64,000 bases of DNA from positions 2,368,001-2,432,000 of the forward strand of contig OZ243974.1 in the NCBI GenBank assembly GCA_965214775.1, in the 5' to 3' direction. The translations under genes and the position numbers were made by a program. Each line of letters starts with the position of its first letter. Position 1 is the first letter of the stretch. This document shows positions 5,728-59,772 of the stretch, in pieces. Under the pieces are notes generated by a model. The model was given only the letters and a program-made list of their open reading frames with translations, ran no database searches and was not told the DNA's origin. The DNA is from Nitrosopumilus sp. (GTDB taxonomy: Archaea > Thermoproteota > Nitrososphaeria > Nitrososphaerales > Nitrosopumilaceae).

Positions 5728-5900
5728 GTATGTGGTCACGTCCCTTGCTAGCTAGGCACGAAGATCACAATCATTCATGCTAATTCATGCCTAACTGATG
5801 ATGGTATAGCAACGAGCAGAAATAATTGAGGTTTTTTACGTGTAGTTATGACCTGCTTTGACTCAAAGACTTCTGCCCGTTGCTATAGGTGACCTCGTAC
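5728..5900. mobile_element. IS66-type MITE carrying a nested IS630 MITE (5805-5887)
   Basis: GTATGTGGTCAC…GTGACCTCGTAC with an internal TA-flanked TAGCAACG element. Confidence 0.85.
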
Positions 5901-13918: not shown

Positions 13919-14036
13919 GTAACAGGATAGCCCCTGCCTAGGTAGCAATCAGGCACGAATCTGCCTGCAGCTGTGATTTTCATGCCTGATCTGCAAGGGA
14001 CGTAATTCCAACTCTAGGCAGGGGCTATCCTGTTAC
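13919..14036. mobile_element. IS66-type MITE, family GTAA(T/C)AGG
   Basis: 22-bp TIR; near-TSD CATGCTGT/CATGCTGC. Confidence 0.88.
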
Positions 14037-16382: not shown

Positions 16383-16758
16383 ACCGCAAATCTGGCACTT
16401 TTATTTATTATCTGTTTTTTTAAAGATGCCGATGGTTATAATATATGAAGAGTAGGTCCACTAGTCATCTATGTCCTTCTACATTTTAGGTCTTTTTTCC
16501 GGGATTGTTTCCTAATTCCACCTGCCTGACTCAGTCTATGTTTTTCTGAATTTTTGCCCTTTTGCACGCTTTATCCGTGTGGCATCTCAACGGTTTTCAG
16601 GAATTCTGGCGAATTAGGAAACAACTCCAGTAATAGAAGGATGGCCCATGCCTAGGCAGCAATCAGGTGTATGTTTGACTGCAGCTGTGATTTTCATGCC
16701 TGTCCGGCAGTGGATCATGACTTCAATCTAACTAGGGGTTATCCTATTACATTTAAAG

Positions 16759-28427: not shown

Positions 28428-29287
28428 CAGTAACCGTCTGACTTGCAGTTTTTAGCGCAGGACATTACAATTGTTTGGACATGTGGCAATTATATGCTTT
28501 GTGTAATCGAGGAGGTTGTCCGGAATCCTTCCAGAAATTTACCGATAAGCGTATGGATCATGAGTGCAGGATGCGACAGCTTTGTGGATCACCGGATCGG
28601 CGTCTCTTCCCGTATCATGGGGGTTGTTTCCTAATTCACTTCATGCTGCCTCCACCGGTATCCCGAGATTTGCGGCACACTTGAGTCTGTTTAGCACCTC
28701 AAGGTTCCACCCTATTGCCTTGCACAAACCGAACCTTCGGCGGGTAGATGCCTTTCTGAACCTGCACATCAGCCTGTGGTTCTCTGCCTCCTCTGCACCA
28801 AAGATTCCCTCTATTGTTGCGCGCATCTTGTAGGATTCCGGATCAAACATCTTGGAAGCTTCCTTTCTGTGTTTCTTTTTGGTGTGGACTGCATTGGCCC
28901 TTAGTTTGATGTTTGGTTTCATTCCAGATTCCTTGAGGAGCCTTACGTTCTCATCTGAATCGTATCCCCTGTCGGCGTTGAAGATGCCGGAGAATCCTAG
29001 TCCGATCCTCTTGATCTTCTGCAACAGTGATCTTAGGACGGTGGTGTCTGCCATTTTGTCCGAGGTAATCTGGCATGCCAGGATTACCTGCAGGCCCAGT
29101 ACGGATGCCACATGCCACTTTAGGTACTGTTTGTAGGGCTTGGCCTTTCTCTTTCTTTCGGCCTTTTTTGCACCCGATTCGTGCGTAATATCGGCCTTTT
29201 TGTCCGTCTTTTTTGGCTTGAGATCCTTTCTCTTTTTGTTCTTGTCGTACCTGTCAGTAACGACGCCGGTGCTGTCGGCTGCAAGCT

Positions 29288-29368
29288 GTACAACTTCAGG
29301 TCCTATTTAAACCGCCTAGGAATCTAGGAAGTATTTGCTTGCCAGTATAAATGGGACCTGAAGTTGTA
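29288..29368. mobile_element. IS66-type MITE, family GTACAACTTCAGG
   Basis: TIR like the IS66 at 49997-52101; 8-bp TSD TGCAAGCT at 29280-29287 and 30116-30123 encloses MITE plus IS110; related copy at 40606-40687. Confidence 0.88.
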
Positions 29369-30114
29369 TCTATGTGTCGTGCTTATAAGGATTCCACGCG
29401 CAACGGTGTTGTGAAGTATGGCTTTGGCTGGGGGTCTCTTCCTGACAATCACAAAATGAAGGTCGGACACTTATCTATACGAGGATCTCCCTCAGTACCA
29501 TTCTTCATCCATTTGTCAGAACCGTTCTGCAGTTATCTATGTGTCGTGCTTATAAGGATTCCACGCGCAACGGTGTTGTGAAGTATGGCTTTGGCTGGGG
29601 GTCTCTTCCTGACAATCACAAAATGAAGGTCGGACACTTATCTATACGAGGATCTCCCTCAGTACCATTCTTCATCCATTTGTCAGAACCGTTCTGCAGT
29701 TACTAAACGAGGATCTCCCTCAACAACATCAACGCAGATTAAAGTTCTAACTGTAATGACAATAATAATGATGATGATGACGTTCGTTTCACACGCATGT
29801 CCCCTATGCACTGATTGAAGGCCATCTATTTCTTTAGCATACGAGGACTCCATGACGCACCTAGTGTTATCCGGAATCTTTGCAAACATCTCTCTTATCT
29901 CGCTGTTCCTGTTCCTTATTTTTGTATTCCTCAGGACCTTGTCGTCCTTGTCCATCACTGCAACCTGGATGGACTTCTTGTGCACGTCCAGACCGACATA
30001 CTGCTGCACCGCCTTTGATTTCACATATATCCTCTTTTTTGCGCTAATCTGTTTGTCTGCATTGCGATTTATCTTGGTACCATCTGAATTTTGTTTTTGA
30101 GACACATATGGTTA
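29367..30114 (-). mobile_element. Internally deleted IS110 derivative with a 167-bp right-end tandem duplication
   Basis: Ends TA-ACCATATGTGTC…GACACATAGA-TA; recombinase deleted after 'MESS'. Confidence 0.9.
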
Positions 30115-31142
30115 CTGCAAGCTTGAGTGCAGACATGTCAAATCCTGCAAGGCATCTGCGTGCAGTCTCTGATATCATCCCCTCAAGCCACTTGCCAGGA
30201 ATCTTTGGCAGGAACTTGCACAGGGTGACGTGGTCTGGCACCGGTTCGTCGTTCCAGCGAGGCAGTTTTAGAAAGTGCGCAAGACACTGCGTGTCACGGT
30301 ACGTCAGATCTAGGCAGACCATCAAAATGCACAGGCAGGCCAGCTTGTCACGGCTGTGGACTGTCGGCCGTCCCGGTCCGGAACTGACCTTCTTTACGGG
30401 ACATGGGTTCTCCACTATCAAAGAAACTATATTGGATAGGAGAAACACCATTTCTTGGGTGTGGGCAGCATGGTAATACTTCCAGTACCCATCGCGTCTC
30501 TTATGTTCCGTCATTAGAGAACCACGCCCGTTCTGATCAATATAGTGTAGACTCTAGAAAATTAGACTAAATTGCCGAATTAGGAAACAACCCCCGTATC
30601 ATGAGATCAAGGATCAAAAAAAAGGGGAATCAAAAGGTAACAGATCGATCTCTGCAAGTTCAGGCATGAATTCTGTCACTAATGAATGTCGATCAAATGG
30701 AATCTATGCCGAAAATCAGAAACGACTTCCAGAACCCGATCAGTTACGCCAAAAGACCGACGAGGAAAAAAAGTCAAAAAAGAAGTGCGCAAGACCTCTG
30801 GAATGTTTGCCAGGTGCGGGGGAAAAAGGGGCCTTGTTGTTGAGACCGCCTTTTTGTTGATAAAGGCCGGGCTTGACTCCACGATGTACGCATCGCCGCC
30901 ATGTCGCTTCTGTTGCAGTCACTCGGGCTGATCCTCAAGGCATTCTGCTACTATTACTACTATTACTACAAGACCTAGTCAACTGGGATTCAGTGCCGAT
31001 ACGGCGGAATCATCCGGCTGGCTGATGCCATGCAGTATGACATCAAAACACGGGTCATGGCCGTACAATGCGGGCCTGAGTGCGGATCCGTCTATATGTT
31101 TGCAGTCATTGCGCCGTGATTTTGCACAAATCACCCCGGAAA

Positions 31143-33332: not shown

Positions 33333-33550
33333 TTAATATCATTAAAACATAATTATATATAACGATTTATGATTTAATGATACTGATATAATAATACAAA
33401 ATAAACAGATGTGTTTGCTTTATCCACTTGAAAGCATTGGGCTGCCCTTCCTCACTTCCTCCTTTCCTACCACCATGTCTCCATATATGGCTGTTCTATC
33501 CCTCATCTCACGTCCAAACATTAGTCTGATGCGACCCACCGTAACCATAT

Positions 33551-34678
33551 GTGTCTCAAAAACAAAATTCAGATGGTGCCAAGATAAATGGCAATGCAAA
33601 CAAACAGATTACCGCAAAAAAGAGGATACATGTGAAATCAAAGACTGTACAAATACAACAACAACAGCAGTATGTCGGCCTGGACGTGCACAAGAATTTC
33701 ATCCAGGTCGCGGTGATGGACAAGGGCGGCAAGATGCTGAGTAACACAAGAGTCGACAACAATGACGACGAGATAAGAAAGATATTTTCAGGGATTCCAA
33801 AGAATGCAAAGTGCGTCATGGAGTCCTCTTCAGTATGGTACGGGCTGTTCAGGTTCATTTCAGACAGTCTCAAAAGGGACGTGATCCTCTCAAACCCGTT
33901 TGAGACCAAGGCCATTGCCACATCAAAGAAAAAGACAGACAAGGTCGACGCGCAGATTCTGGCAGATCTTCTCAGGGGAGGATACATATCTGCATGTTAC
34001 GTTCCCTCCGGCAAGACGGTACAGAACAGGCAGCTGACCAGGCACCGCGCAAAGACGATACAGTCAAGGACCGTACTAAAGAACCAGATACACGCAATAC
34101 TGCTGCAAAACAGGATACAGGTAAATGGGGATCCGTTCTCCAGACCGTGGATCTCAAGGGTGAGAGATCTGGACAACTTTAGGATAAATGACAAATTAAG
34201 CATAATTGACTCTATAAACGACAGAATAGTAGGCATTGACATGCGCATCAAGAGCGCAGTTGCCGACAATCCGGATGCAGTATTACTGCAGACGATTCCC
34301 GGGTTTGGCAGCTACACTGCACTGACCATGGCATCAGAGATAGACGGCGTTGACAGGTTTGCCGACTCACACAAGCTGTGCGCGTATGCCGGAATGGTGC
34401 CGTCTGTGAGAAACTCTGCAGACACCATCCACCATGGAAGGATAACAAAGAGGGGCAGCCCCATGATGAGGTGGCTCCTAGTGGAGTCAGTACACAGCCA
34501 CGTAAGACATGCGCCGTCAGACTCGCCGATATCTGTCTTTTACAAGAGGGTTGCAAAGAAGAGGGGAACGTCCAAGGCCGCAGTGGCTGCCGCATCCAAG
34601 ATGCTGCGCATATCATACTGGATGCTAAAGAAGAGGATGACCTTCAAGCAGTGCATAGGAGATGCGTGTGTGAAATGA
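33551..34678 (+). CDS. IS110 recombinase
   Basis: DEDD RuvC 'GLDVHK', 'MES', 'KTDKVDA'; C-domain 'IPGFG', 'PSVRNSA', 'GRITKRG'. Confidence 0.95.
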   Translation: MSQKQNSDGAKINGNANKQITAKKRIHVKSKTVQIQQQQQYVGLDVHKNFIQVAVMDKGGKMLSNTRVDNNDDEIRKIFSGIPKNAKCVMESSSVWYGLFRFISDSLKRDVILSNPFETKAIATSKKKTDKVDAQILADLLRGGYISACYVPSGKTVQNRQLTRHRAKTIQSRTVLKNQIHAILLQNRIQVNGDPFSRPWISRVRDLDNFRINDKLSIIDSINDRIVGIDMRIKSAVADNPDAVLLQTIPGFGSYTALTMASEIDGVDRFADSHKLCAYAGMVPSVRNSADTIHHGRITKRGSPMMRWLLVESVHSHVRHAPSDSPISVFYKRVAKKRGTSKAAVAAASKMLRISYWMLKKRMTFKQCIGDACVK

Positions 34679-34689
34679 ATGTTGGTATT

Positions 34690-34860
34690 ACCATTACAGT
34701 TAGAACTTTAATCTGCGTTAACCTAGTTGAGGGCGATCCTCGTTTTGTAACTGCAGAATGGTTCTGACAAATGGATGAAGAATGGTGCTGAGGGAGATCC
34801 TCGTATAGATAAGTGTCCGACCTTCATTTTGGAATTGTCAGGAAAGACCCCCAGCCAAAG
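34690..34860 (+). ncRNA. Predicted bridge/seek RNA (target loop ~34712-34757, donor loop ~34775-34828)
   Basis: Two GAGG-N5-CCTC hairpins flanked by matches to the target and the donor junction, each closed by a stem (TCTGC/GCAGA, ATGAAG/CTTCAT); boundaries approximate. Confidence 0.8.
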
Positions 34861-35079
34861 CCATGCCTCACAACACCGTTGCGCGTGGAATCCTTATAAA
34901 CGTGACACATAGATAACTGCAGAATGGTTCTGACAAATGGATGAAGAATGGTGCTGAGGGAGATCCTCGTATAGATAAGTGTCCGACCTTCATTTTGGAA
35001 TTGTCAGGAAAGACCCCCAGCCAAAGCCATGCCTCACAACACCGTTGCGCGTGGAATCCTTATAAACGTGACACATAGA

Positions 35080-35195
35080 TAATAGGTTAGCCCTTGCCTA
35101 GGCAGCAATCAGGCATGAATCTGCCTCTAGTTACGATTTTCATGCCTGAACAGACGGGGGTGTGACTTTAACTCTAGGCAGGGGCTAACCTGTTA
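35080..35195. mobile_element. IS66-type MITE with an IS110 inserted at both termini
   Basis: (G)TAATAGGTTAGCCC…GGGCTAACCTGTTA(C). Confidence 0.88.
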
Positions 35196-36570
35196 TCTAT
35201 GTGTCATGTTTATAAGGATTCCACGCGCAACGGTGTTGTGAGGCATGGCTTTGGCTGGGGGTCTTTCCTGACAATTCCAAAATGAAGGTCGGACATTTAT
35301 CTATACGAGGATCTCCCTCAGCACCATTCTTCATCCATTTATCAGAACCATTCTGCAGTTACAAAACGAGGATCGCCCTCAACTAGGTTAACGCAGATTA
35401 AAGTTCTAACTGTAATGGTAATACCAACATTCATTTCACACACGCATCTCCTATGCACTGCTTGAAGGTCATCCTCTTCTTTAGCATCCAGTATGATATG
35501 CGCAGCATCTTGGATGCGGCAGCCACTGCGGCCTTGGACATTCCCCTCTTCTTTGCAACCCTCTTGTAAAAGACAGATATCGGCGAGTCTGACGGCGCAT
35601 GTCTTACGTGGCTGTGTACTGACTCCACCAGGAGCCACCTCATCATGGGGCTGCCCCTCTTTGTTATCCTTCCATGGTGAATGGTGTCTGCAGAGTTTCT
35701 CACAGACGGCACCATTCCGGCATACGCGCACAGCTTGTGTGAGTCGGCAAACCTGTCAACGCCGTCTATCTCTGATGCCATGGTCAGTGCAGTGTAGCTG
35801 CCAAACCCGGGAATCGTCTGCAGTAAGACTGCATCCGGACTGTCGGCAACCGCGCTCTTGATGCGCATGTCAATGCCTACTATCCTGTCGTTTATGGAGT
35901 CAATTATGCTTAATTTGTCATTTATCCTAAAGTTGTCCAGATCTCTCACCCTTGAGATCCACGGTCTGGAGAACGGATCCCCATTTACCTGTATCCTGTT
36001 TTGCAGCAGTATTGCGTGTATCTGGTTCTTTAGTACGGTCCTTGACTGTATCGTCTTTGCGCGGTGCCTGGTCAGCTGCCTGTTCTGTACAGTCTTGCCG
36101 GAGGGAACGTAGCATGCAGATATGTATCCTCCCCTGAGAAGATCTGCCAGAATCTGCGCGTCGACCTTGTCTGTCTTTTTCTTTGATGTGGCAATGACCT
36201 TGGTCTCAAACGGGTTTGAGAGGATCACGTCCCTTTTGAGACTGTCTGAAATGAACCTGAACAGCCCGTACCATACTGAAGAGGACTCCATGACGCACTT
36301 TGCATTCTTTGGAATCCCTGCAAATATCTTTCTTATCTCGTCGTCATTGTTGTCGACTCTTGTGTTGCTCAGCACCTTGCCGCCCTTGTCCATCACCGCG
36401 ACCTGGATGAAATTCTTGTGCACGTCCAGGCCGACATACTGCTGCTGTTGTTGTTGTATTTGTACAGTCTTTGATTTCACATGTATCCTCTTTTTTGCGG
36501 TAATCTGTTTGTTTGCATTGCCATTTATCTTGGCACCATCTGAATTTTGTTTTTGAGACACATATGGTTA
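35194..36570 (-). mobile_element. IS110 element, second full-length copy (recombinase 35431-36561)
   Basis: Near-identical inverted copy of 33542-34915. Confidence 0.93.
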
Positions 36571-36609
36571 CAGTCCGTTTACACATCATCAAAATCTGCC
36601 AATCTCGAA

Positions 36610-41555: not shown

Positions 41556-42136
41556 TATCTATGTGTCGTGCTTATAAGGATTCCACGCGTAACGGTGTTG
41601 TGAAGTATGGCTTTGGCTGGGGGTCTCTTCCTGACAATCACAAAATGAAGGTCGGACACTTATCTATACGAGGATCTCCCTCAGTACCATTCTTCATCCA
41701 TTTGTCAGAACCGTTCTGCAGTTACTAAACGAGGATCTCCCTCAACTACATCAACGCAGATTAAAGTTCTAACTGTAATGACAATAATAATAATGATGAT
41801 GACGTTCATTTCACACGCATGTCCACTATGCACTGACTGAAGGCCATCTATTTCTTTAGCATACGAGGACTCCATGACGCACCTGGTGTTATCCGGAATC
41901 TTTGCAAACATCTCTCTTATCTCGCTGTTCCTGTTGCTTATTTTTGTATTCCCCAGGACCTTGCCGTCCTTGTCCATCACCGCGACCTGGATGGACTCCT
42001 TGTGCACGTCCAGGCCGACATACTGCTGCTCCGCCTTTGATTTCACACATATCCTTTTTTTTGCGCTAATCTGTCTGTTTGCATTGCCTTTTATCTTGGT
42101 ACCATCTGAATTTTGTTTTTGAGACACATATGGTTA
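41556..42136 (-). mobile_element. Internally deleted IS110 derivative, second copy
   Basis: Same deletion breakpoint as 29367-30114; inserted at G|TA-CAACATC. Confidence 0.9.
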
Positions 42137-42402
42137 CCCTTGTTTTGGCTCAGAGTAACAGCTCGGGCTCTGGAAGTTCAGGTGTGAGTTTTGCCACCTC
42201 GGAGGCCCATGACATATTCGTGCCTGAAATCAGGAACAGCTTCCAGAGCCCGAGCTGTTACCTCAAAGACTTATGCTCATTGCTATATGGATGTCAAGAC
42301 TGATGCTGTCTGCGTTTGGAATCTGTTGGACCATCAGTTACAAGGCTGGATGATCGCCGGTTTTGGATTTGTTATAAATAGGCCACCCATGATTTGTTTT
42401 TC

Positions 42403-42547
42403 AATATATAAAAAACTAGCAGCCAGCTTGCCTATGAATATATAAAAAACTAGCAGCCAGCTTGCCTATGAATATATAAAAAACTAGCAGCCAGCTTGCC
42501 TATGAATATATAAAAAACTGCCAACCAGCTTGCCTATGAATATATAA
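42403..42547 (+). repeat. 4 x 34-bp tandem repeat, each with TATATAAA
   Basis: AATATATAAAAAACTAGCAGCCAGCTTGCCTATG; ends ~25 bp before ATG 42572. Confidence 0.92.
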
Positions 42548-42571
42548 TGAAACTCATTATGATCACAAAGT

Positions 42572-49996: not shown

Positions 49997-52101
49997 GTAC
50001 AACTTCAGATCCTTTTTATACTGACTAGGGAACTTTTTGCCCGGAACTTTTTGATCCTTCCGCATCTGCTGTGACAGACCCGCTACATCACACCACACGT
50101 CCCTTGTATATGCAAGACCGGCAGCGCGCAGACAACAGATTATTGGCAGACAACAGATTATTGGCAGACGGCACCTGCAGGAAACCAGCATTGTCAGATT
50201 TGCCTGGCGTTGTTGACTGGCAGACTTGCCTGCACAGTCGGATTCTTTGACATGAAGCTACGGGTTACGCCGTCCCGTAGACGCCAGACGGATCATGTTG
50301 TTGTAGGAGCTGCTGCTGCTGGTACGACGGCCGTCCGGTTCCGGCGTACCGCTCCTCTGCTGCTGCCTGCGTCATCATCGACTACAGGCCGCCACACCGG
50401 CGGCGGCCCGGGACACTCAAAGACGCTGTATCTTGTACCGTCCGTATTGACAAGCAAGGACAGCAGGCGCGCATCATTATCATCATCTCTTGCATCTGCA
50501 AAGATATCCCAGACCGGATTCCGCAGGTATTTCAAGAGTCCGCCGGCAGGATGTATATTCTGCTTGCGACATGTCATCGAGAACGTCAGCAGCGCAGAAG
50601 CCGTCTTTCTTCCCCCGTCAGTTACGATCTTGTGGCGTGCATTGCGTTGTGGTATGATCCCGTCGCGTATGCACCGCTCCGTATCGTTGTTGTGCAGCGG
50701 CATTCCCCGATGCGCCAGACACGTAAACATGTTGGGCATGGCGTTTAGCAGGTGTGTACGCACGTGAACGTCCTCATACGGGTTGATTATTTTGTATACT
50801 TCCCTGGAAAGATCCATGTATGTAAGCGGCGCAAGCGTCTTGATTTTATCTATCTTCCTGTAGAATTCCAGCAGCAAGTCATACCTTTTCTCATCATCGC
50901 CTTCGGGCATCTTTACTGCAAGCTTTTCTGCATACGCCAGAAGGTGCCTCCAACACCTCTGGATTATATCAAAGAACAGCTTGTACTGGGCCAGTTCGTC
51001 TACGACTATGGGAGTCTTGGGATCCAGCCATCCAAAGTGCGTGTGCAGTACCTCGGAGGACCGGGAATCTGCAAAGACCACAAAGCACGCCCCCTCGCAG
51101 TTGAGCACCCAGACGTACCCCGTGTGCCCGTCGCCGCGCTTAAAGCCGGTCTCGTCCATCTGTATCCACGGCCTGCCCGCAATGAATGACTGTATGCGTT
51201 GTATCATGTTTTGTTGAATCGCCTCTGCCACTGTGTGCCGGGCGGCAGTCACGGTATTTGGGGCCATCCTGAATCCAAACATATACTGAAAGTACTCTGC
51301 AATGTCCTCGTCTGTGTTTCCCTTCTCAAAGAACATCATGATTAGAGAGAGTGAGACGGGCCCAAGTGACGTGCCGCTTAGAAACGGGGTGGCCGCTACA
51401 TGCACGGTATTGCACTGTGGACACACCGCGTTTTGGATGATGGCATTGGCAGTGAGCATGCGCATAAAACCGTCCAGGTCGTTGACAAGCTTGTGGATCG
51501 GCTTGAGCATCCGTAACTGGATGTTGCACCTTGGGCATATTTTGGAGCCAAGATCGTACCTTAATGTCATGGATGGCCGGTTGCCGTGCGATGTACCATG
51601 GTGTCCGCACGGAGGGCCGCGTTTCTTGCCCCGAGCAGCATCGCCTGGACTGCCGCCGGGATCCTCGCCCCTTTTCTCCCTGAACTTTCTTCTGGCATCA
51701 TTGTGTAATGACGGCGTGGACGTGGGCATGTTGGGACTCTCGTACAGGGCAAGCCTTGCCCGGAGCTCGGAGTTCTCCTCTTTGATGTCGGAGTTCTCCT
51801 TTTCCAGCTCGGAGATCTTCTCATCCCGCTCCTTGATCATGACAAGTGCCTTTGCAAGATCCATATGGTGTGCAGGCGTAGATTTGGAGTCCATGTGTTA
51901 CATCAAACAGGCATGATCAAAAAAGATTTCCATCGAAATTCTTTGACTAGGATGCCGATAATGGATCACCCCAGCAAATTCCAATCCTGCAATGACTGGT
52001 CACAAATGTCTGATGTTCAGCCATGTTCGCAGGGGCATCTGATCATAAGATGCTGCCCAAAAATGTTTGACTGTCAGTATAAAAAGGACCTGAAGTTGTA
52101 C
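49997..52101 (-). mobile_element. IS66-family single-ORF element, transposase 50293-51894
   Basis: 29-bp TIR GTACAACTTCAG(A/G)TCCTTTTTATACTGAC; 'MDETG', 'QRCWRHL', 'HNNDTERCIR'; no TSD. Confidence 0.92.
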
Positions 52102-52113
52102 CTTAAGTCCATA

Positions 52114-55100
52114 GTTTCAATCCTTGTTATGATGGATTAGTCATTACGACTTGTAGGGCGGCGCTAAAACTATCAAAGTCCATAGTTTCAATCCTTGTTA
52201 TGATGGATTAGTCATTACGACTACCTTTTTTCTTAGTATGAATTACTACGTTCACCGTTTCAATCCTTGTTATAATGGATTAGTCATTACGACCGTTTTT
52301 GGATCTGTTTGAAGGTGCATATTACGGGTTTCAATCCTTGTTATGATGGATTAGTCATTACGACGGCTGAACCATGATGTTATGCCTTCACGGTTAGAAG
52401 TTTCAATCCTTGTTATGATGGATTAGTCATTACGACAAAGAGATGGAAGGCAAGGACATACCAGCAATGGAGTTTCAATCCTTGTTATGATGGATTAGTC
52501 ATTACGACTAGCCCAAACCCAAATATCCCCGGAGGCTTTTTTGGTTTCAATCCTTGTTATGATGGATTAGTCATTACGACATTCCGGAGGCAGTTACAGA
52601 TCAGTGGGTAAAAAAGTTTCAATCCTTGTTATGATGGATTAGTCATTACGACAAACTTACAAGGTAACCCATGTGACAACGCATGAAAGTTTCAATCCTT
52701 GTTATGATGGATTAGTCATTACGACCTTCTGGAATTGTTCTAATTCCATTTTGTTGATAGTTTCAATCCTTGTTATGATGGATTAGTCATTACGACGGAA
52801 AAGCTGAAACTATTATCAGAAAAGGATAGACGTTTCAATCCTTGTTATGATGGATTAGTCATTACGACCTAACCTAGACATTTTTGGTGAGGAAATCGAG
52901 ACTGTTTCAATCCTTGTTATGATGGATTAGTCATTACGACTCGATATGACATTGACCACAATTAGGACAGTTATCCAGTTTCAATCCTTGTTATGATGGA
53001 TTAGTCATTACGACATTAGAAAAGAGTTTGAATTTCAAACTGTATTTTCCGTTTCAATCCTTGTTATGATGGATTAGTCATTACGACGTGTTTTTTCATA
53101 GTCGTTATATTCTAGTCTTAAGTTTCAATCCTTGTTATGATGGATTAGTCATTACGACAAACCAATATACCCAGAGGTATCAATCTGGTCTAAGTTTCAA
53201 TCCTTGTTATGATGGATTAGTCATTACGACATGCTCTGCAAATTTGCAGAGTTTTGCAACAACGGGTTTCAATCCTTGTTATGATGGATTAGTCATTACG
53301 ACTATCAAACAGTAAAAGCAAATAGGGCCATTTTGCTGTTTCAATCCTTGTTATGATGGATTAGTCATTACGACTTCGATCTGTGCTTTGCATTTCTCAA
53401 GTTGTTTTCCCAGTTTCAATCCTTGTTATGATGGATTAGTCATTACGACTGTTTTATGGTATTAAAATAGGCTGGCGGTTCCGCCGTTTCAATCCTTGTT
53501 ATGATGGATTAGTCATTACGACTGATTTTTGTTTTTTGAATCCGCCCTACTCACATTGTTTCAATCCTTGTTATGATGGATTAGTCATTACGACCTAACC
53601 ATAGACAACAACACGGACACGGCCCATCCGTTTCAATCCTTGTTATGATGGATTAGTCATTACGACCCGATAAGATTCAGACTTTTCAACTTGATGCTGA
53701 GGTTTCAATCCTTGTTATGATGGATTAGTCATTACGACTCGATGCAGCTCCTCGGCCTCTTGCTTTGTTGAGCGGTTTCAATCCTTGTTATGATGGATTA
53801 GTCATTACGACCAGCATTTCGGTTTTTCCAGTCCCCGCCGGGCCGCGTTTCAATCCTTGTTATGATGGATTAGTCATTACGACAATGGACACGCCGCAAC
53901 ATTGAAGGCTTTCTTGACTTGTTTCAATCCTTGTTATGATGGATTAGTCATTACGACAAGTCATCAGAATCGTGGCCTTTGGACTGGGAATGTTTCAATC
54001 CTTGTTATGATGGATTAGTCATTACGACTCACTTAGCATTCGGTGTATGGTTCTTAGACTAACTTTGGTTTCAATCCTTGTTATGATGGATTAGTCATTA
54101 CGACTGGCTTGTGGCCATATTCCTTGGTTAATGCATGAAAAGTTTCAATCCTTGTTATGATGGATTAGTCATTACGACCAGCCAAAAAAGAAGAATCTGA
54201 ATAATGCCCGAGCGTTTCAATCCTTGTTATGATGGATTAGTCATTACGACTTGCTCATGTCTAGTTATTCTCATGTACGTTATAGTTTCAATCCTTGTTA
54301 TGATGGATTAGTCATTACGACCGTTGCAATCCGGAAATATGACTTTGCCGAAATTGAGTTTCAATCCTTGTTATGATGGATTAGTCATTACGACGGTACA
54401 ACACTGTCTTCAATGTCGGGTATCGTATCGTTTCAATCCTTGTTATGATGGATTAGTCATTACGACATTAAATACCTGAAATGCAAACAATGTTCCTTGT
54501 AAAGTTTCAATCCTTGTTATGATGGATTAGTCATTACGACTGCTTTTTTCTGCTATTTCTTTTAGCAGTGTTCTTCGTTTCAATCCTTGTTATGATGGAT
54601 TAGTCATTACGACCTTTGACACAGACGCCGAGATCGTACAAGAAGTAAAGTTTCAATCCTTGTTATGATGGATTAGTCATTACGACTCCAGTTCTTCTTG
54701 TGAAGGGTTGAACATTTTTGGTTTCAATCCTTGTTATGATGGATTAGTCATTACGACGGGGATGGACATGACGGCGACCTGACCGTATCGGGTTTCAATC
54801 CTTGTTATGATGGATTAGTCATTACGACGGGAACGGAAGCGCAACGATGCCGAGCTGTATTTCCCGTTTCAATCCTTGTTATGATGGATTAGTCATTACG
54901 ACTCAAACTATCTGAAGAAAACAATTCCGTACAAGATTGTTTCAATCCTTGTTATGATGGATTAGTCATTACGACATTCGTTGGTCACGATATACGTTTA
55001 CTAGTCGTTCGTTTCAATCCTTGTTATGATGGATTAGTCATTACGACTCACTGATATTGTAACACATGTGTTACGTGACAAGTTTCAATCCTTGTTATGA

Positions 55101-57007
55101 TGGATTAGTCATTACGACCTAGCTGATACTGTGATAATGCAGTCGGGTTCGGTTTCAATCCTTGTTATGATGGATTAGTCATTACGACTCAAAAAGCACG
55201 GCTTTGCAGTCGACCCATGGCTGTTTCAATCCTTGTTATGATGGATTAGTCATTACGACCGAACAAATCCTTTAGTTCCGCTATCTTGGGATCAGTTTCA
55301 ATCCTTGTTATGATGGATTAGTCATTACGACAGAAAACTAGAAGAAGCCGTCGAGAACTTGAACAAGTTTCAATCCTTGTTATGATGGATTAGTCATTAC
55401 GACAAGAAAGATACAGTTTGATCTTCAAATGCGACTTGTTTCAATCCTTGTTATGATGGATTAGTCATTACGACATTACATCTATATACATAGATTTTTT
55501 ACAGCCCTCAGTTTCAATCCTTGTTATGATGGATTAGTCATTACGACCTCTTTTTTTGACTTTTTTGACTTTTTTTGATCGAGTTTCAATCCTTGTTATG
55601 ATGGATTAGTCATTACGACCGTCAATGAATTTCTGCGGGAGGTTTGCCGCCTGGGGTTTCAATCCTTGTTATGATGGATTAGTCATTACGACTCTGTATG
55701 AGCAGGGTACGGAAAACACCACGGTAGTTTCAATCCTTGTTATGATGGATTAGTCATTACGACCAACAACAACTAAGACAGCTAGACCCTGCCACCTTGT
55801 TTCAATCCTTGTTATGATGGATTAGTCATTACGACGGTCTCTAGTGCATTTACAATTTGGGTGCGTGTCGTTTCAATCCTTGTTATGATGGATTAGTCAT
55901 TACGACTGTTGTTTTAGCGTGCGTTTGGCCCATTGTGTTTGGTTTCAATCCTTGTTATGATGGATTAGTCATTACGACGTACGTGCAATACTGCTCAGAT
56001 TGCTGCGGGTCGTTTCAATCCTTGTTATGATGGATTAGTCATTACGACAAAGGCAGAAACGACACAACGTCTGTATGATATCTGGTTTCAATCCTTGTTA
56101 TGATGGATTAGTCATTACGACAGGATTATAGGGATGCTTTGCTGGATAGGGTAAAAGTTTCAATCCTTGTTATGATGGATTAGTCATTACGACTTTGCCG
56201 TTGACGTACCCCAACGCTTTCAAAATGTTTCAATCCTTGTTATGATGGATTAGTCATTACGACTTTTTGTTGTTGTGTCAATGGTTATACCGTGCCAGTT
56301 TCAATCCTTGTTATGATGGATTAGTCATTACGACAATACGGCCAGGGAGAAGTCAATTATGGCGAGGTGTTTCAATCCTTGTTATGATGGATTAGTCATT
56401 ACGACAGGGCAACAATATCAATCCAACCAAGGGTCAGCGGTTTCAATCCTTGTTATGATGGATTAGTCATTACGACCCAAAAATAGTTTCAATCCTTGGG
56501 AGATTAGTCAAAATTCAATCGTTTCCGCGAGGTGTTTCAATCCTTGTTATGATGGATTAGTCATTACGACTGGATCTCAATTTCAATTCATGGGTCATAG
56601 TTTCAATCCTTGTTATGATGGATTAGTCATTACGACTATAAAAATCGTTTTCCATGATCACCAGGTGTTTCAATCCTTGTTATGATGGATTAGTCATTAC
56701 GACTCATCGGCTCTTCCTGGATTTTATAATCATCAATGGTTTCAATCCTTGTTATGATGGATTAGTCATTACGACTGACTCTGAAACGGGCAGAGATCAA
56801 GTTTCCAGACGTCCAAATGTGGAGGGTTTCAATCCTTGTTATGATGGATTAGTCATTACGACGAACCAGGCGACAACTTTTATCCCGTCATACAATGGTT
56901 TCAATCCTTGTTATGATGGATTAGTCATTACGACAGATGACTTCAACAAATCTGCGGCTTTGAATCATACGTTTCAATCCTTGTTATGATGGATTAGTCA
57001 TTACGAC
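52114..57007 (-). CRISPR. CRISPR array, about 68 repeats of 37 bp (GTCGTAATGACTAATCCATCATAACAAGGATTGAAAC)
   Basis: Identical repeats apart from one SNP at ~52274; spacers mostly 33-38 bp; ATTGAAAC 3' end implies minus-strand transcription. Confidence 0.99.
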
Positions 57008-59689: not shown

Positions 59690-59772
59690 TATAGCAACGG
59701 GCAGAAGTCTTTGAGTCAAAGTAGGTCATAACTACACGTAAAAAACCTCAACTATTTCTGCTCGTTGCTATA
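59690..59772. mobile_element. IS630-derived MITE in the last codons of cas3
   Basis: TA-TAGCAACG…CGTTGCTA-TA; supplies the cas3 stop. Confidence 0.92.

Follow-up and report, generated by a model that had tools for sequence, protein, structure and literature searches.

Recombinases guided by bridge RNAs (seekRNAs) are under development as programmable tools for DNA insertion, and what restricts them is the extent of target sequence that each guide strand needs to read. The left guide of IS621 pairs with the bottom strand, its right guide with the top strand; the core is present in all four guides, and the natural target of 11 nucleotides (nt) has nine non-core positions, the right guide covering 4 bp including the core (PMC11208160); with 7 nt read beyond the core on one side and 2 nt on the other, IS621 is therefore itself lopsided. 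In the seekRNAs of the IS1111 group the top-strand match lies 5' of the bottom-strand match, the reverse of IS110-type RNAs (PMC11187229), and the subterminal inverted repeats measure 7-17 bp (PMC11208160) or usually 11-13 bp (PMC11187229). For ISEc11, circle formation and transposition were both lost when the flank on one side or the other was replaced (PMC11187229). Here we describe an IS1111-type member of the IS110 family from a Nitrosopumilaceae-like archaeon (Nitrosopumilus sp.), found in a stretch of 64,000 nt (the window; contig OZ243974.1, positions 2,368,001 to 2,432,000). We put at about 0.8 the probability that the region after its transposase gene is a guide RNA gene (bridge RNA/seekRNA) whose left target guide is vestigial and which reads its target from one side.

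The features of the reference copy, copy B, are collected in Table 1. Its transposase has the two domains of the IS110 family, the RuvC-like DEDD N-terminal domain (DEDD_Tnp_IS110, PF01548; 2.7e-24, 86.2 bits against a cut-off of 29) and the C-terminal Transposase_20 (PF02371; 6.9e-22, 78.1 bits against a cut-off of 21.3). The real start of the protein probably lies further downstream than that of the listed open reading frame (ORF), because conservation and the Pfam domain both start near residue 41. As in the IS1111 group, the RNA lies in a non-coding gap of 235 nt between the stop codon (34678) and the right end (34913), and a subterminal inverted repeat is present, TATGTGTC (33548-33555) being 100% complementary to GACACATA (34904-34911) over 8 nt; inverted pairs of 8 bp are frequent in the repeat list (25 pairs), and the weight of this one rests on its position. 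Only the core TA is common to both junctions, in copies A-D and genome-wide, with no long terminal inverted repeats, as is typical of the IS110 family. A circular intermediate of the whole element would join the right end to the left end as CACATAGA-TA-ACCATATG. The element resembles ISEc11, ISPa11 and ISKpn4 (Siddiquee et al. 2024, PMC11187229; Durrant et al. 2024, PMC11208160) in its DEDD transposase, downstream RNA, subterminal repeat, two loops and lack of duplication beyond the core, and its RNA has the guide order of IS1111 seekRNAs. It is unlike that group in that the target's left half pairs at G-TA only, in a repeat of 8 bp, in its archaeal host and in its target, the tips of IS66-type repeats.

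Table 1. Coordinates of the element, its guide RNA region and its targets (window positions unless marked genome).
Feature	Position	Strand	Remark
Left junction, copy B: G (-1), then core dinucleotide TA	33541-33543	+	
Left end: ACCAT (33544-33548), target of the donor loop, and subterminal inverted-repeat arm TATGTGTC (33548-33555)	33544-33555	+	
Transposase ORF, 375 aa as listed	33551-34678	+	Pfam domains
Candidate bridge/seek RNA core, two-loop	34699-34818	+	
Stem P1	34699-34705 with 34762-34768	+	
Stem P2	34713-34717 with 34752-34756	+	
Target-loop 5' strand (right guide)	34718-34727	+	Copy B matches 8/9
Hairpin 1, TGAGG-GCGAT-CCTCG, caps target loop	34728-34742	+	Helix 3; all 5 pairs changed on both sides
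Target-loop 3' strand, TTTTG + core TA, sense of left flank + core	34743-34749	+	Only G-TA matches
Stem P4	34773-34777 with 34814-34818	+	
Donor-loop 5' strand ATGGT, complementary to left end ACCAT	34782-34786	+	
Hairpin 2, TGAGG-GAGAT-CCTCG, caps donor loop	34789-34803	+	Helix 5
Donor-loop 3' strand, ATAGA + TA, sense of right end + core	34805-34811	+	
166-nt module, first copy: 3' halves of P2 and P1, donor loop, right end CACATAGA, TA	34750-34915	+	
166-nt module, second tandem copy	34916-35081	+	Right end CACATAGA 35072-35079, TA 35080-35081
Copy B, full length, two modules	33542-35081	+	
Right target of copy B, ATAGGTTAG	35082-35090		
Palindromic IS66-type miniature element, 112 bp	35082-35193	.	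Both tips occupied, by B and C
Copy C, full length, one module	35194-36570	-	99% identical to B; RNA 35271-35420; G (-1) at 36571
Copy A, internally deleted, two modules	29367-30114	-	RNA 29612-29761; guide TTGATGTTGT
Copy D, internally deleted, one module	41556-42136	-	RNA 41634-41783; guide TTGATGTAGT
IS66-family element, ends GTACAACTTCAGGTCC	genome 327371-329476		Outside the window; tips also at window 52017-52097

The original prediction placed a twin-loop RNA at this locus on the strength of two GAGG-N5-CCTC hairpins, both of which are present (GAGG-GCGAT-CCTC at 34729-34741 and GAGG-GAGAT-CCTC at 34790-34802). The locus was confirmed and its extent refined: the core runs from 34699 to 34818, because the outer stem starts 13 nt upstream of the start first proposed. 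A consensus fold of five helices was derived from a structure-blind MAFFT alignment of 26 diverse representatives, in which 91.9% of cells were paired compared with 35-44% when the 3' partners were slid by 1-3 columns. Within this alignment 16 of the 27 pairs were altered on both sides, and the covariation score was reached by none of 500 shuffles. A covariance model built from the 26-homologue alignment matched four full copies (137-142 bits) and two half copies (76-79 bits) in the window, 22 stretches of the genome (16 full, 115-142 bits; six with the donor loop only, 65-79 bits), and gave 90 matches in 92 sources. Among 66 distinct homologues 94.7% of cells were paired (37-43% when slid) with compensatory change in 20/27 pairs, in an alignment that leans towards the structure because it was fitted to it. 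The locus thus has the organization of a bridge RNA or seekRNA, two internal loops enclosed by stems that are conserved and covary, and the failure of the stems to covary, which the original prediction had named as the result that would speak against it, did not occur. Folding of the single sequence was uninformative by itself (z = -1.79; 11 of 200 shuffles fold equally well), its minimum-energy structure pairing the guide strands with each other. An initial lower stem for the donor loop, GATGAAG/CTTCATT, was dropped for GGATG/TGTCC after the alignment had been folded.

Relatives of the transposase (41-90% identity) were found in 18 of the 101 related genomes searched, its own genome included, and in many records titled Nitrosopumilaceae or Nitrosopumilus metagenome-assembled genomes. 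In those records 497 of 595 candidate stretches were confirmed, and among the best 80 of the 497, which were used here, nearly all carry a twin-hairpin region after the transposase gene. Several relatives (L074, L095, L085, L080 and L007) have additional stem-loops of 15-40 nt in the apical loop of hairpin 1 or hairpin 2, with the framing stems and guides kept. The sixteenth full match in the genome (115 bits; 1100957-1101103) belongs to a different subfamily with the 3' strand GGGAAC-TA, and no left-end motif was detected in the 3.2 kb scanned upstream of it.

The donor loop would recognise both ends of the element, its 5' strand ATGGT pairing with the left end ACCAT and its 3' strand ATAGA-TA having the sense of the right end and core; the 8-mer ATAGATAA at 34805-34812 comprises the right end ATAGA, TA and the next base. 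Across 27 distinct combinations of loop and end, the reverse complement of left-end positions +2 to +5 is kept in the 5' strand in 23, with four covarying variants (CCAT/ATGG, CTAT/ATAG, CCGT/ACGG and TCAT/ATGA), and the last five bases of the right end (ATAGA or ATGGA, covarying) are kept in the 3' strand in 25. The donor loops of bridge RNAs are likewise complementary to both element ends. The core TA is present in the 3' strands of both loops; the 5' strand of the target loop covers at most the A, and that of the donor loop covers none of it (ATGGTGC, not ATGGTTA). Some relatives (L002, L005, L007, L020 and others) have TG or TT at the right junction and TA at the left, and L007 likewise has TG in its donor-loop 3' strand; some elements may have a core that differs between the two sides, or those copies may be mutated.

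In the target loop the 5' strand matches the right flank. Its reverse complement, read from the core A, was compared with the flank over nine positions and agreed at 8/9 in copies A and B, at 7/9 in copies C and D, and at 7-8/9 in 13 of the 15 genome copies tabulated, compared with at most 6/9 when guides were set against the flanks of the other subfamily (98 pairs). For copy B the original prediction proposed a guide of eight nucleotides, and the 8-mer TAACCTAG is indeed at 34719-34726; the match itself consists of seven contiguous nt, TAGGTTA, and the core A, with position +1 mismatched. The other guide motifs, and the four left flanks, were all found where that prediction had placed them, and its reading of the two loops as a target loop and a donor loop was borne out. 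The guide covaries with the target: group 1 elements (guide the reverse complement of ACTAGGTTA) sit at TA-A(T/C)AGGTTAGCC, also written TA-A(T/C)AGGTTA, and group 2 elements (guide the reverse complement of AC(A/T)ACATCA) sit at TA-CAACATCA, that is TA-CAAC(A/T)TCAGG. A match of the target loop to the right half of the target, with a guide that changes with target type, is what a bridge RNA shows, and two subfamilies with different guides and different targets in one genome amount to a natural reprogramming experiment.

These targets are the ends of other transposons. Uninterrupted copies read nnnn-GTAACAGGTTAGCC.. or nnnn-GTACAACTTCAGG.. and begin with GTA, so that empty tips have the form nnnn-GTA-AC/CA.. 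and occupied tips nnnn-G-TA-[IS]-TA-... The 24 sites with AGGTTAGCC are preceded by GTAAC (12), GTAAT (1), the element (4) or other sequence (7), and by our own count from the same output GTAC precedes 43 of the 59 AACTTCAGG sites. A 2.1-kb element with GTACAACTTCAGG.. ends encodes a DDE_Tnp_IS66 protein of 539 aa (1.2e-19) and belongs to the IS66 family; short versions (80-110 bp) are flanked by 8-bp duplications. At copy A the 8-bp duplication AGCTTGCA (30116-30123 and 29280-29287) surrounds the neighbouring miniature inverted-repeat transposable element (MITE); since AGCTTGCA abuts the G on the left and the far end of the MITE on the right, G is nucleotide 1 of the repeat and TA nucleotides 2-3. 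The insertion site of the element thus comprises nucleotides 1-3 (G|TA) of the terminal inverted repeats carried by IS66-family elements and by their miniature derivatives, in line with the transposon edge envisaged in the original prediction. To our knowledge IS66 repeats in general start with GTA, which the present data show for the repeat families of this genome only. Insertion at the outermost tip of another transposon leaves the DNA to the left of the G arbitrary, and specificity can come only from the right guide, the core and at most one G. In the sister family L033-L037 an inverted-repeat partner was found within 400 nt of the right flank in 0/7 cases. The 2.1-kb element itself is present in several genome copies, beside 80-bp MITEs with the same ends.

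The left side of the target presents a different picture. The target-loop 3' strand TTTTG-TA would have the sense of the left DNA and core (TTTAG-TA and TATAG-TA in the deleted subfamily), and the left flanks of the four window copies, CCACCG (B), GGACTG (C), TTGCAG (A) and CAAGGG (D), share only their final G. We assembled 28 left junctions, 25 with an intact end and three from solo modules (see below); four degenerate ends among the 29 left-end matches were dropped, of which three had G and one A at -1. G was found at -1 in 28/28 and no base preference at -2 to -10, which agrees with the earlier statement that the flanks are arbitrary apart from the G, and a strong left-half motif, sought across these insertions, was absent at -2 to -10. 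The counts of T at -2, -3, -4 and -5 were 9, 10, 5 and 7 of 28 (background 0.26), and pyrimidines, as expected if a U-rich strand formed wobble pairs, were not enriched left of the G in the 28 junctions. The match of the target loop to the left half of the target that characterizes bridge RNAs is therefore restricted here to G-TA.

Relatives with other 3' strands behave differently. Their strands match the left flank over at least 4 contiguous nt beside the TA in 26 of 43 rows, and the median left match is at least 4 nt in 10 of 21 distinct 3' strands (for example CTTGC-TA at ..TTTGC-TA in a genome with ~20 copies, and GGAAC, TCTGG, ACGCA and TTATG). The U-rich strand ending in G, in contrast, has a median left match of 1 over 13 rows (the window, L031, L082, the sister family L033-L037/L091 from two other genomes, and L074). 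For this clade, these comparisons suggest, the usual reading length of the short strand is 4-5 nt, as against one nt in the present lineage. Decay of the left guide is not established: the U-rich TTT(T/A)G also occurs in elements whose transposases are only 54-59% identical to the present one (L033-L037, L091 and L074), and inheritance or selection, instead of drift, may account for the strand. Natural insertions, the source of all that is said here on tolerance, would imply relaxed half-site recognition, with an unmatched left half accepted.

Several observations weigh against a guide RNA with one-sided target reading. That the RNA is produced, that the transposase binds it and that an unpaired left half is tolerated are all deduced from the sequence, and no Rfam family matches the RNA in a search of the stretch. 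The right flank matches poorly in two of the 15 copies, at genome positions 2796570 (3/9) and 923158 (6/9), and neither 5' strand covers the whole TA core, unlike in IS621. The insertions are partly non-independent and many copies are non-autonomous. An unpaired left half would also be a real departure from ISEc11, because that element needs both flanks. Even the base pair with the G is unproven, because the G at -1 may be there only as nucleotide 1 of the targeted repeat.

Other explanations of the unmatched left half were considered against the same data. The left half might be recognised without pairing to 34743-34747, through contacts of the transposase or the shape of the repeat tip, or the U-rich strand might serve some other step, for instance excision or self-regulation; the retention of TTT(T/A)G or CTTTG without a flank match in elements with transposases 54-90% identical, from at least four genomes, and the G-TA at all joints, two internal ones included, would fit. 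The lack of preference at -2 to -10 in the 28 junctions, so that a protein would have no sequence-specific bases to read, and the plain pairing of the same strand with the flank in relatives leave this explanation only an outside chance. A few insertions at MITE tips might alternatively have been followed by the spread of MITE-plus-IS composites by the IS66 transposase, in which case the flanks would say little about tolerance on the left. Four group 2 copies (genome positions 915399, 1166885, 1210886 and 2666586) do adjoin one MITE type, CAACATCAG.TCCTTTTTATACTGACAAGCC, which itself counts against the independence of the insertions, and copy A lies with its MITE within one 8-bp duplication. 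Spread as composites nevertheless appears quite improbable: the IS66 transposase would lack one end, because the left end of the composite keeps only GTA of the repeat; the two tips of a single MITE are taken by copies B and C; there are at least nine different right-flank contexts; the sister family L033-L037/L091 adds six more flanks ending only in G; and tolerance is already evident from any one insertion whose left half is unmatched.

We regard it as very improbable that recognition is two-sided as usual and that the element boundary has been misplaced, with the conserved left half lying inside the called element. One-sided target logos have been attributed to wrong ends in ISfinder (PMC11187229), and GTAAC is common to the left junction and the target-loop 3' strand; the boundary is nevertheless fixed by the uninterrupted targets, by AGCTTGCA abutting the G at copy A and by the match of the donor loop to ACCAT.. 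(23/27). That the hairpins are terminators or repeat-derived palindromes rather than parts of a guide RNA is scarcely credible: each is a short G+C-rich stem after an ORF, but no T run follows hairpin 2, stems P1, P2 and P4 covary, and the loop strands covary with the ends and insertion sites.

A separate observation concerns a 166-nt unit, the donor-loop module, that varies in number between copies. The module runs from ACTGCAG, directly after the G-TA at 34747-34749, to CACATAGA-TA. In copy B the tandem modules are 100% identical, and the covariance model gives a half match at 34859-35004 (76.2 bits). Copy A has two modules that are alike by eye and ~6% different from those of copy B, and a third two-module copy lies at genome position 1166885. 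Solo modules occur at three sites, each with G-TA before it and a GTA-type repeat tip after it. The copy at 1197640 has no module, TTTTG-TA directly abutting a flank that matches that copy's guide at 7/9, and at 634161 a partial extra module begins with CCTCG-TA inside the donor loop. In total, two modules were counted in three copies, a partial extra module in one, solo modules at three sites and none in one copy, and the module joint was always at G-TA. G-TA within the RNA gene is a recurrent joint, seen at window 34743-34749 and at genome positions 1197640, 634161, 69302, 114827 and 2249427. In the closest relative genome the four low-scoring model matches examined comprise two full RNAs (L111, of another subfamily, and L114), a stretch that may be a solo module (L112) and one with only a right end (L113), and they do not establish such a hot spot there.

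A perfect left half-site is unavoidably present in the DNA coding for the left guide, and this DNA would therefore provide an internal self-target. Recombinase action at this site is our tentative explanation for the tandem, solo and missing forms of the module. By one route a 166-bp circle would be excised and then re-inserted; by another, a circle would enter the internal site and the duplicated body would then undergo homologous loss. Recombination at the self-target would yield a part with the transposase and target loop and a 166-nt part with the donor loop, these parts then being found duplicated, alone or missing. A wider proposal, that in this clade either half of the target loop can carry recombination alone, with transposition through the right guide and G-TA and with splitting of the element through the TTTTG-TA self-target, we consider doubtful. 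If true, it would mean that the right guide and G-TA suffice to hunt the tip of any IS66-type repeat, whatever adjoins it, and that the target and donor modules of a bridge RNA have a built-in means of being shuffled.

A related organization is known from ISPpu9 with MITEPpu9/ssr9, where several minicircle types and tandem modules were described (Pares-Guillen et al. 2025, PMC12288879). There too a small module follows an IS110-family element, occurs solo and in tandem, as the present one does elsewhere in the genome, and has its joints at the core dinucleotide. MITEPpu9/ssr9, however, hitch-hikes: it has copies of its own of both end boxes and is dispensable for transposition (PMC12288879), whereas in the present module the donor loop and right end are those of the element itself and the left border lies inside the target loop; that border, TA-ACTGCAGAATGG, has no more than TA-AC in common with the left end, TA-ACCATATGTG, and the module lacks such boxes of its own. 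Excision and alternative pathways are also treated in PMC13626964 and bioRxiv 10.1101/2025.10.25.684509.

The present RNA and that of IS621 have in common two hairpin-capped internal loops and a target loop with a long 5' strand and a short 3' strand. The IS621 RNA is encoded upstream of its gene, its long strand reads the left target half and its core is CT; in the present element the long strand reads the right half, the short strand one nt and the core, and the core is TA. What is new in relation to IS621 is the degree of asymmetry (one nt and the core) and the side of the DNA that is left unread. Since IS621 had provided an earlier example of a lopsided target loop, the gain is limited, and the novelty is moderate: a known system in an extreme, mirror-image version of a known asymmetry, together with an internal recombination joint. 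Partridge and Hall are said to have described in 2003 an IS1111-type element that targets the terminal repeat of another transposon, reportedly inside a 38-bp repeat and with repeat sequence in both halves; the present crossover, unlike that one, lies at nucleotides 2-3 of the repeat. A literature search returned no paper on bridge RNAs in ammonia-oxidising archaea or on IS1111-type elements targeting IS66 ends, although the ISfinder predictions (PMC11208160, Supplementary Table 5) could include related archaeal elements.

A natural family in which one strand reads a single base and the core, landing precisely with a match of 7-8/9 on the other side, is a test case for the minimum of the short strand and could yield recombinases with which the left side of a target may be free. 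The element is also a transposon specialised on the tips of IS66-type elements and their miniatures in ammonia-oxidising archaea, whose mobile elements are little studied.

By BLAST, the genome holds ~6 full copies of the element, ~9 deleted copies, three 166-nt 3' modules on their own and numerous short stubs of the left end. In the window, copies B and C stand head-to-head across the 112-bp palindrome at 35082-35193. The contigs of four DNA runs stop at element ends, with no joints reported, and provide no independent support; loose contig ends (33540/33541, 34747 and 34749) fit the element borders, again with no independent weight, and one of them, in X4, shows a copy ending at G-TA and followed by CGAATTTACCCC. 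The solo left-end stubs measure 51-88 nt, and three of them belong to a separate composite repeat: at genome positions 548985, 808482 and 1299348 a 68-nt stub is fused to a common 35-nt tail, CGCTATATGAAATCTTATCTGTATCCTGTGAT.., which resembles a separate small repeat.

Other repeats were noted in the window. A palindromic MITE family of ~110 bp with IS66-type tips (GTAACAGGTTAGCCCC..) and 8-bp duplications is found at 35082-35193, 13920-14035, 16634-16749 and 1475-1560. Two sub-threshold Rfam matches, mir-980 at 23.5 bits (cut-off 47) and a viral pseudoknot at 22.1 bits (cut-off 38), both fall on the MITE palindrome (35079-35196) and were rejected as chance matches. Five tandem units of 34 nt (..AATATATAAAAAACTAGCAGCCAGC) occupy 42360-42563, just upstream of the left-flank region of copy D, and an 83-bp palindromic repeat family (TATAGCAACGGGCAGAAG...CTGCTCGTTGCTATA) is present at 524-606, 5805-5887 and 59690-59772. 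Finally, a large CRISPR array extends from 52107 to 57000, with 68 copies of the 37-nt repeat GTTTCAATCCTTGTTATGATGGATTAGTCATTACGAC at a period of ~72 nt.

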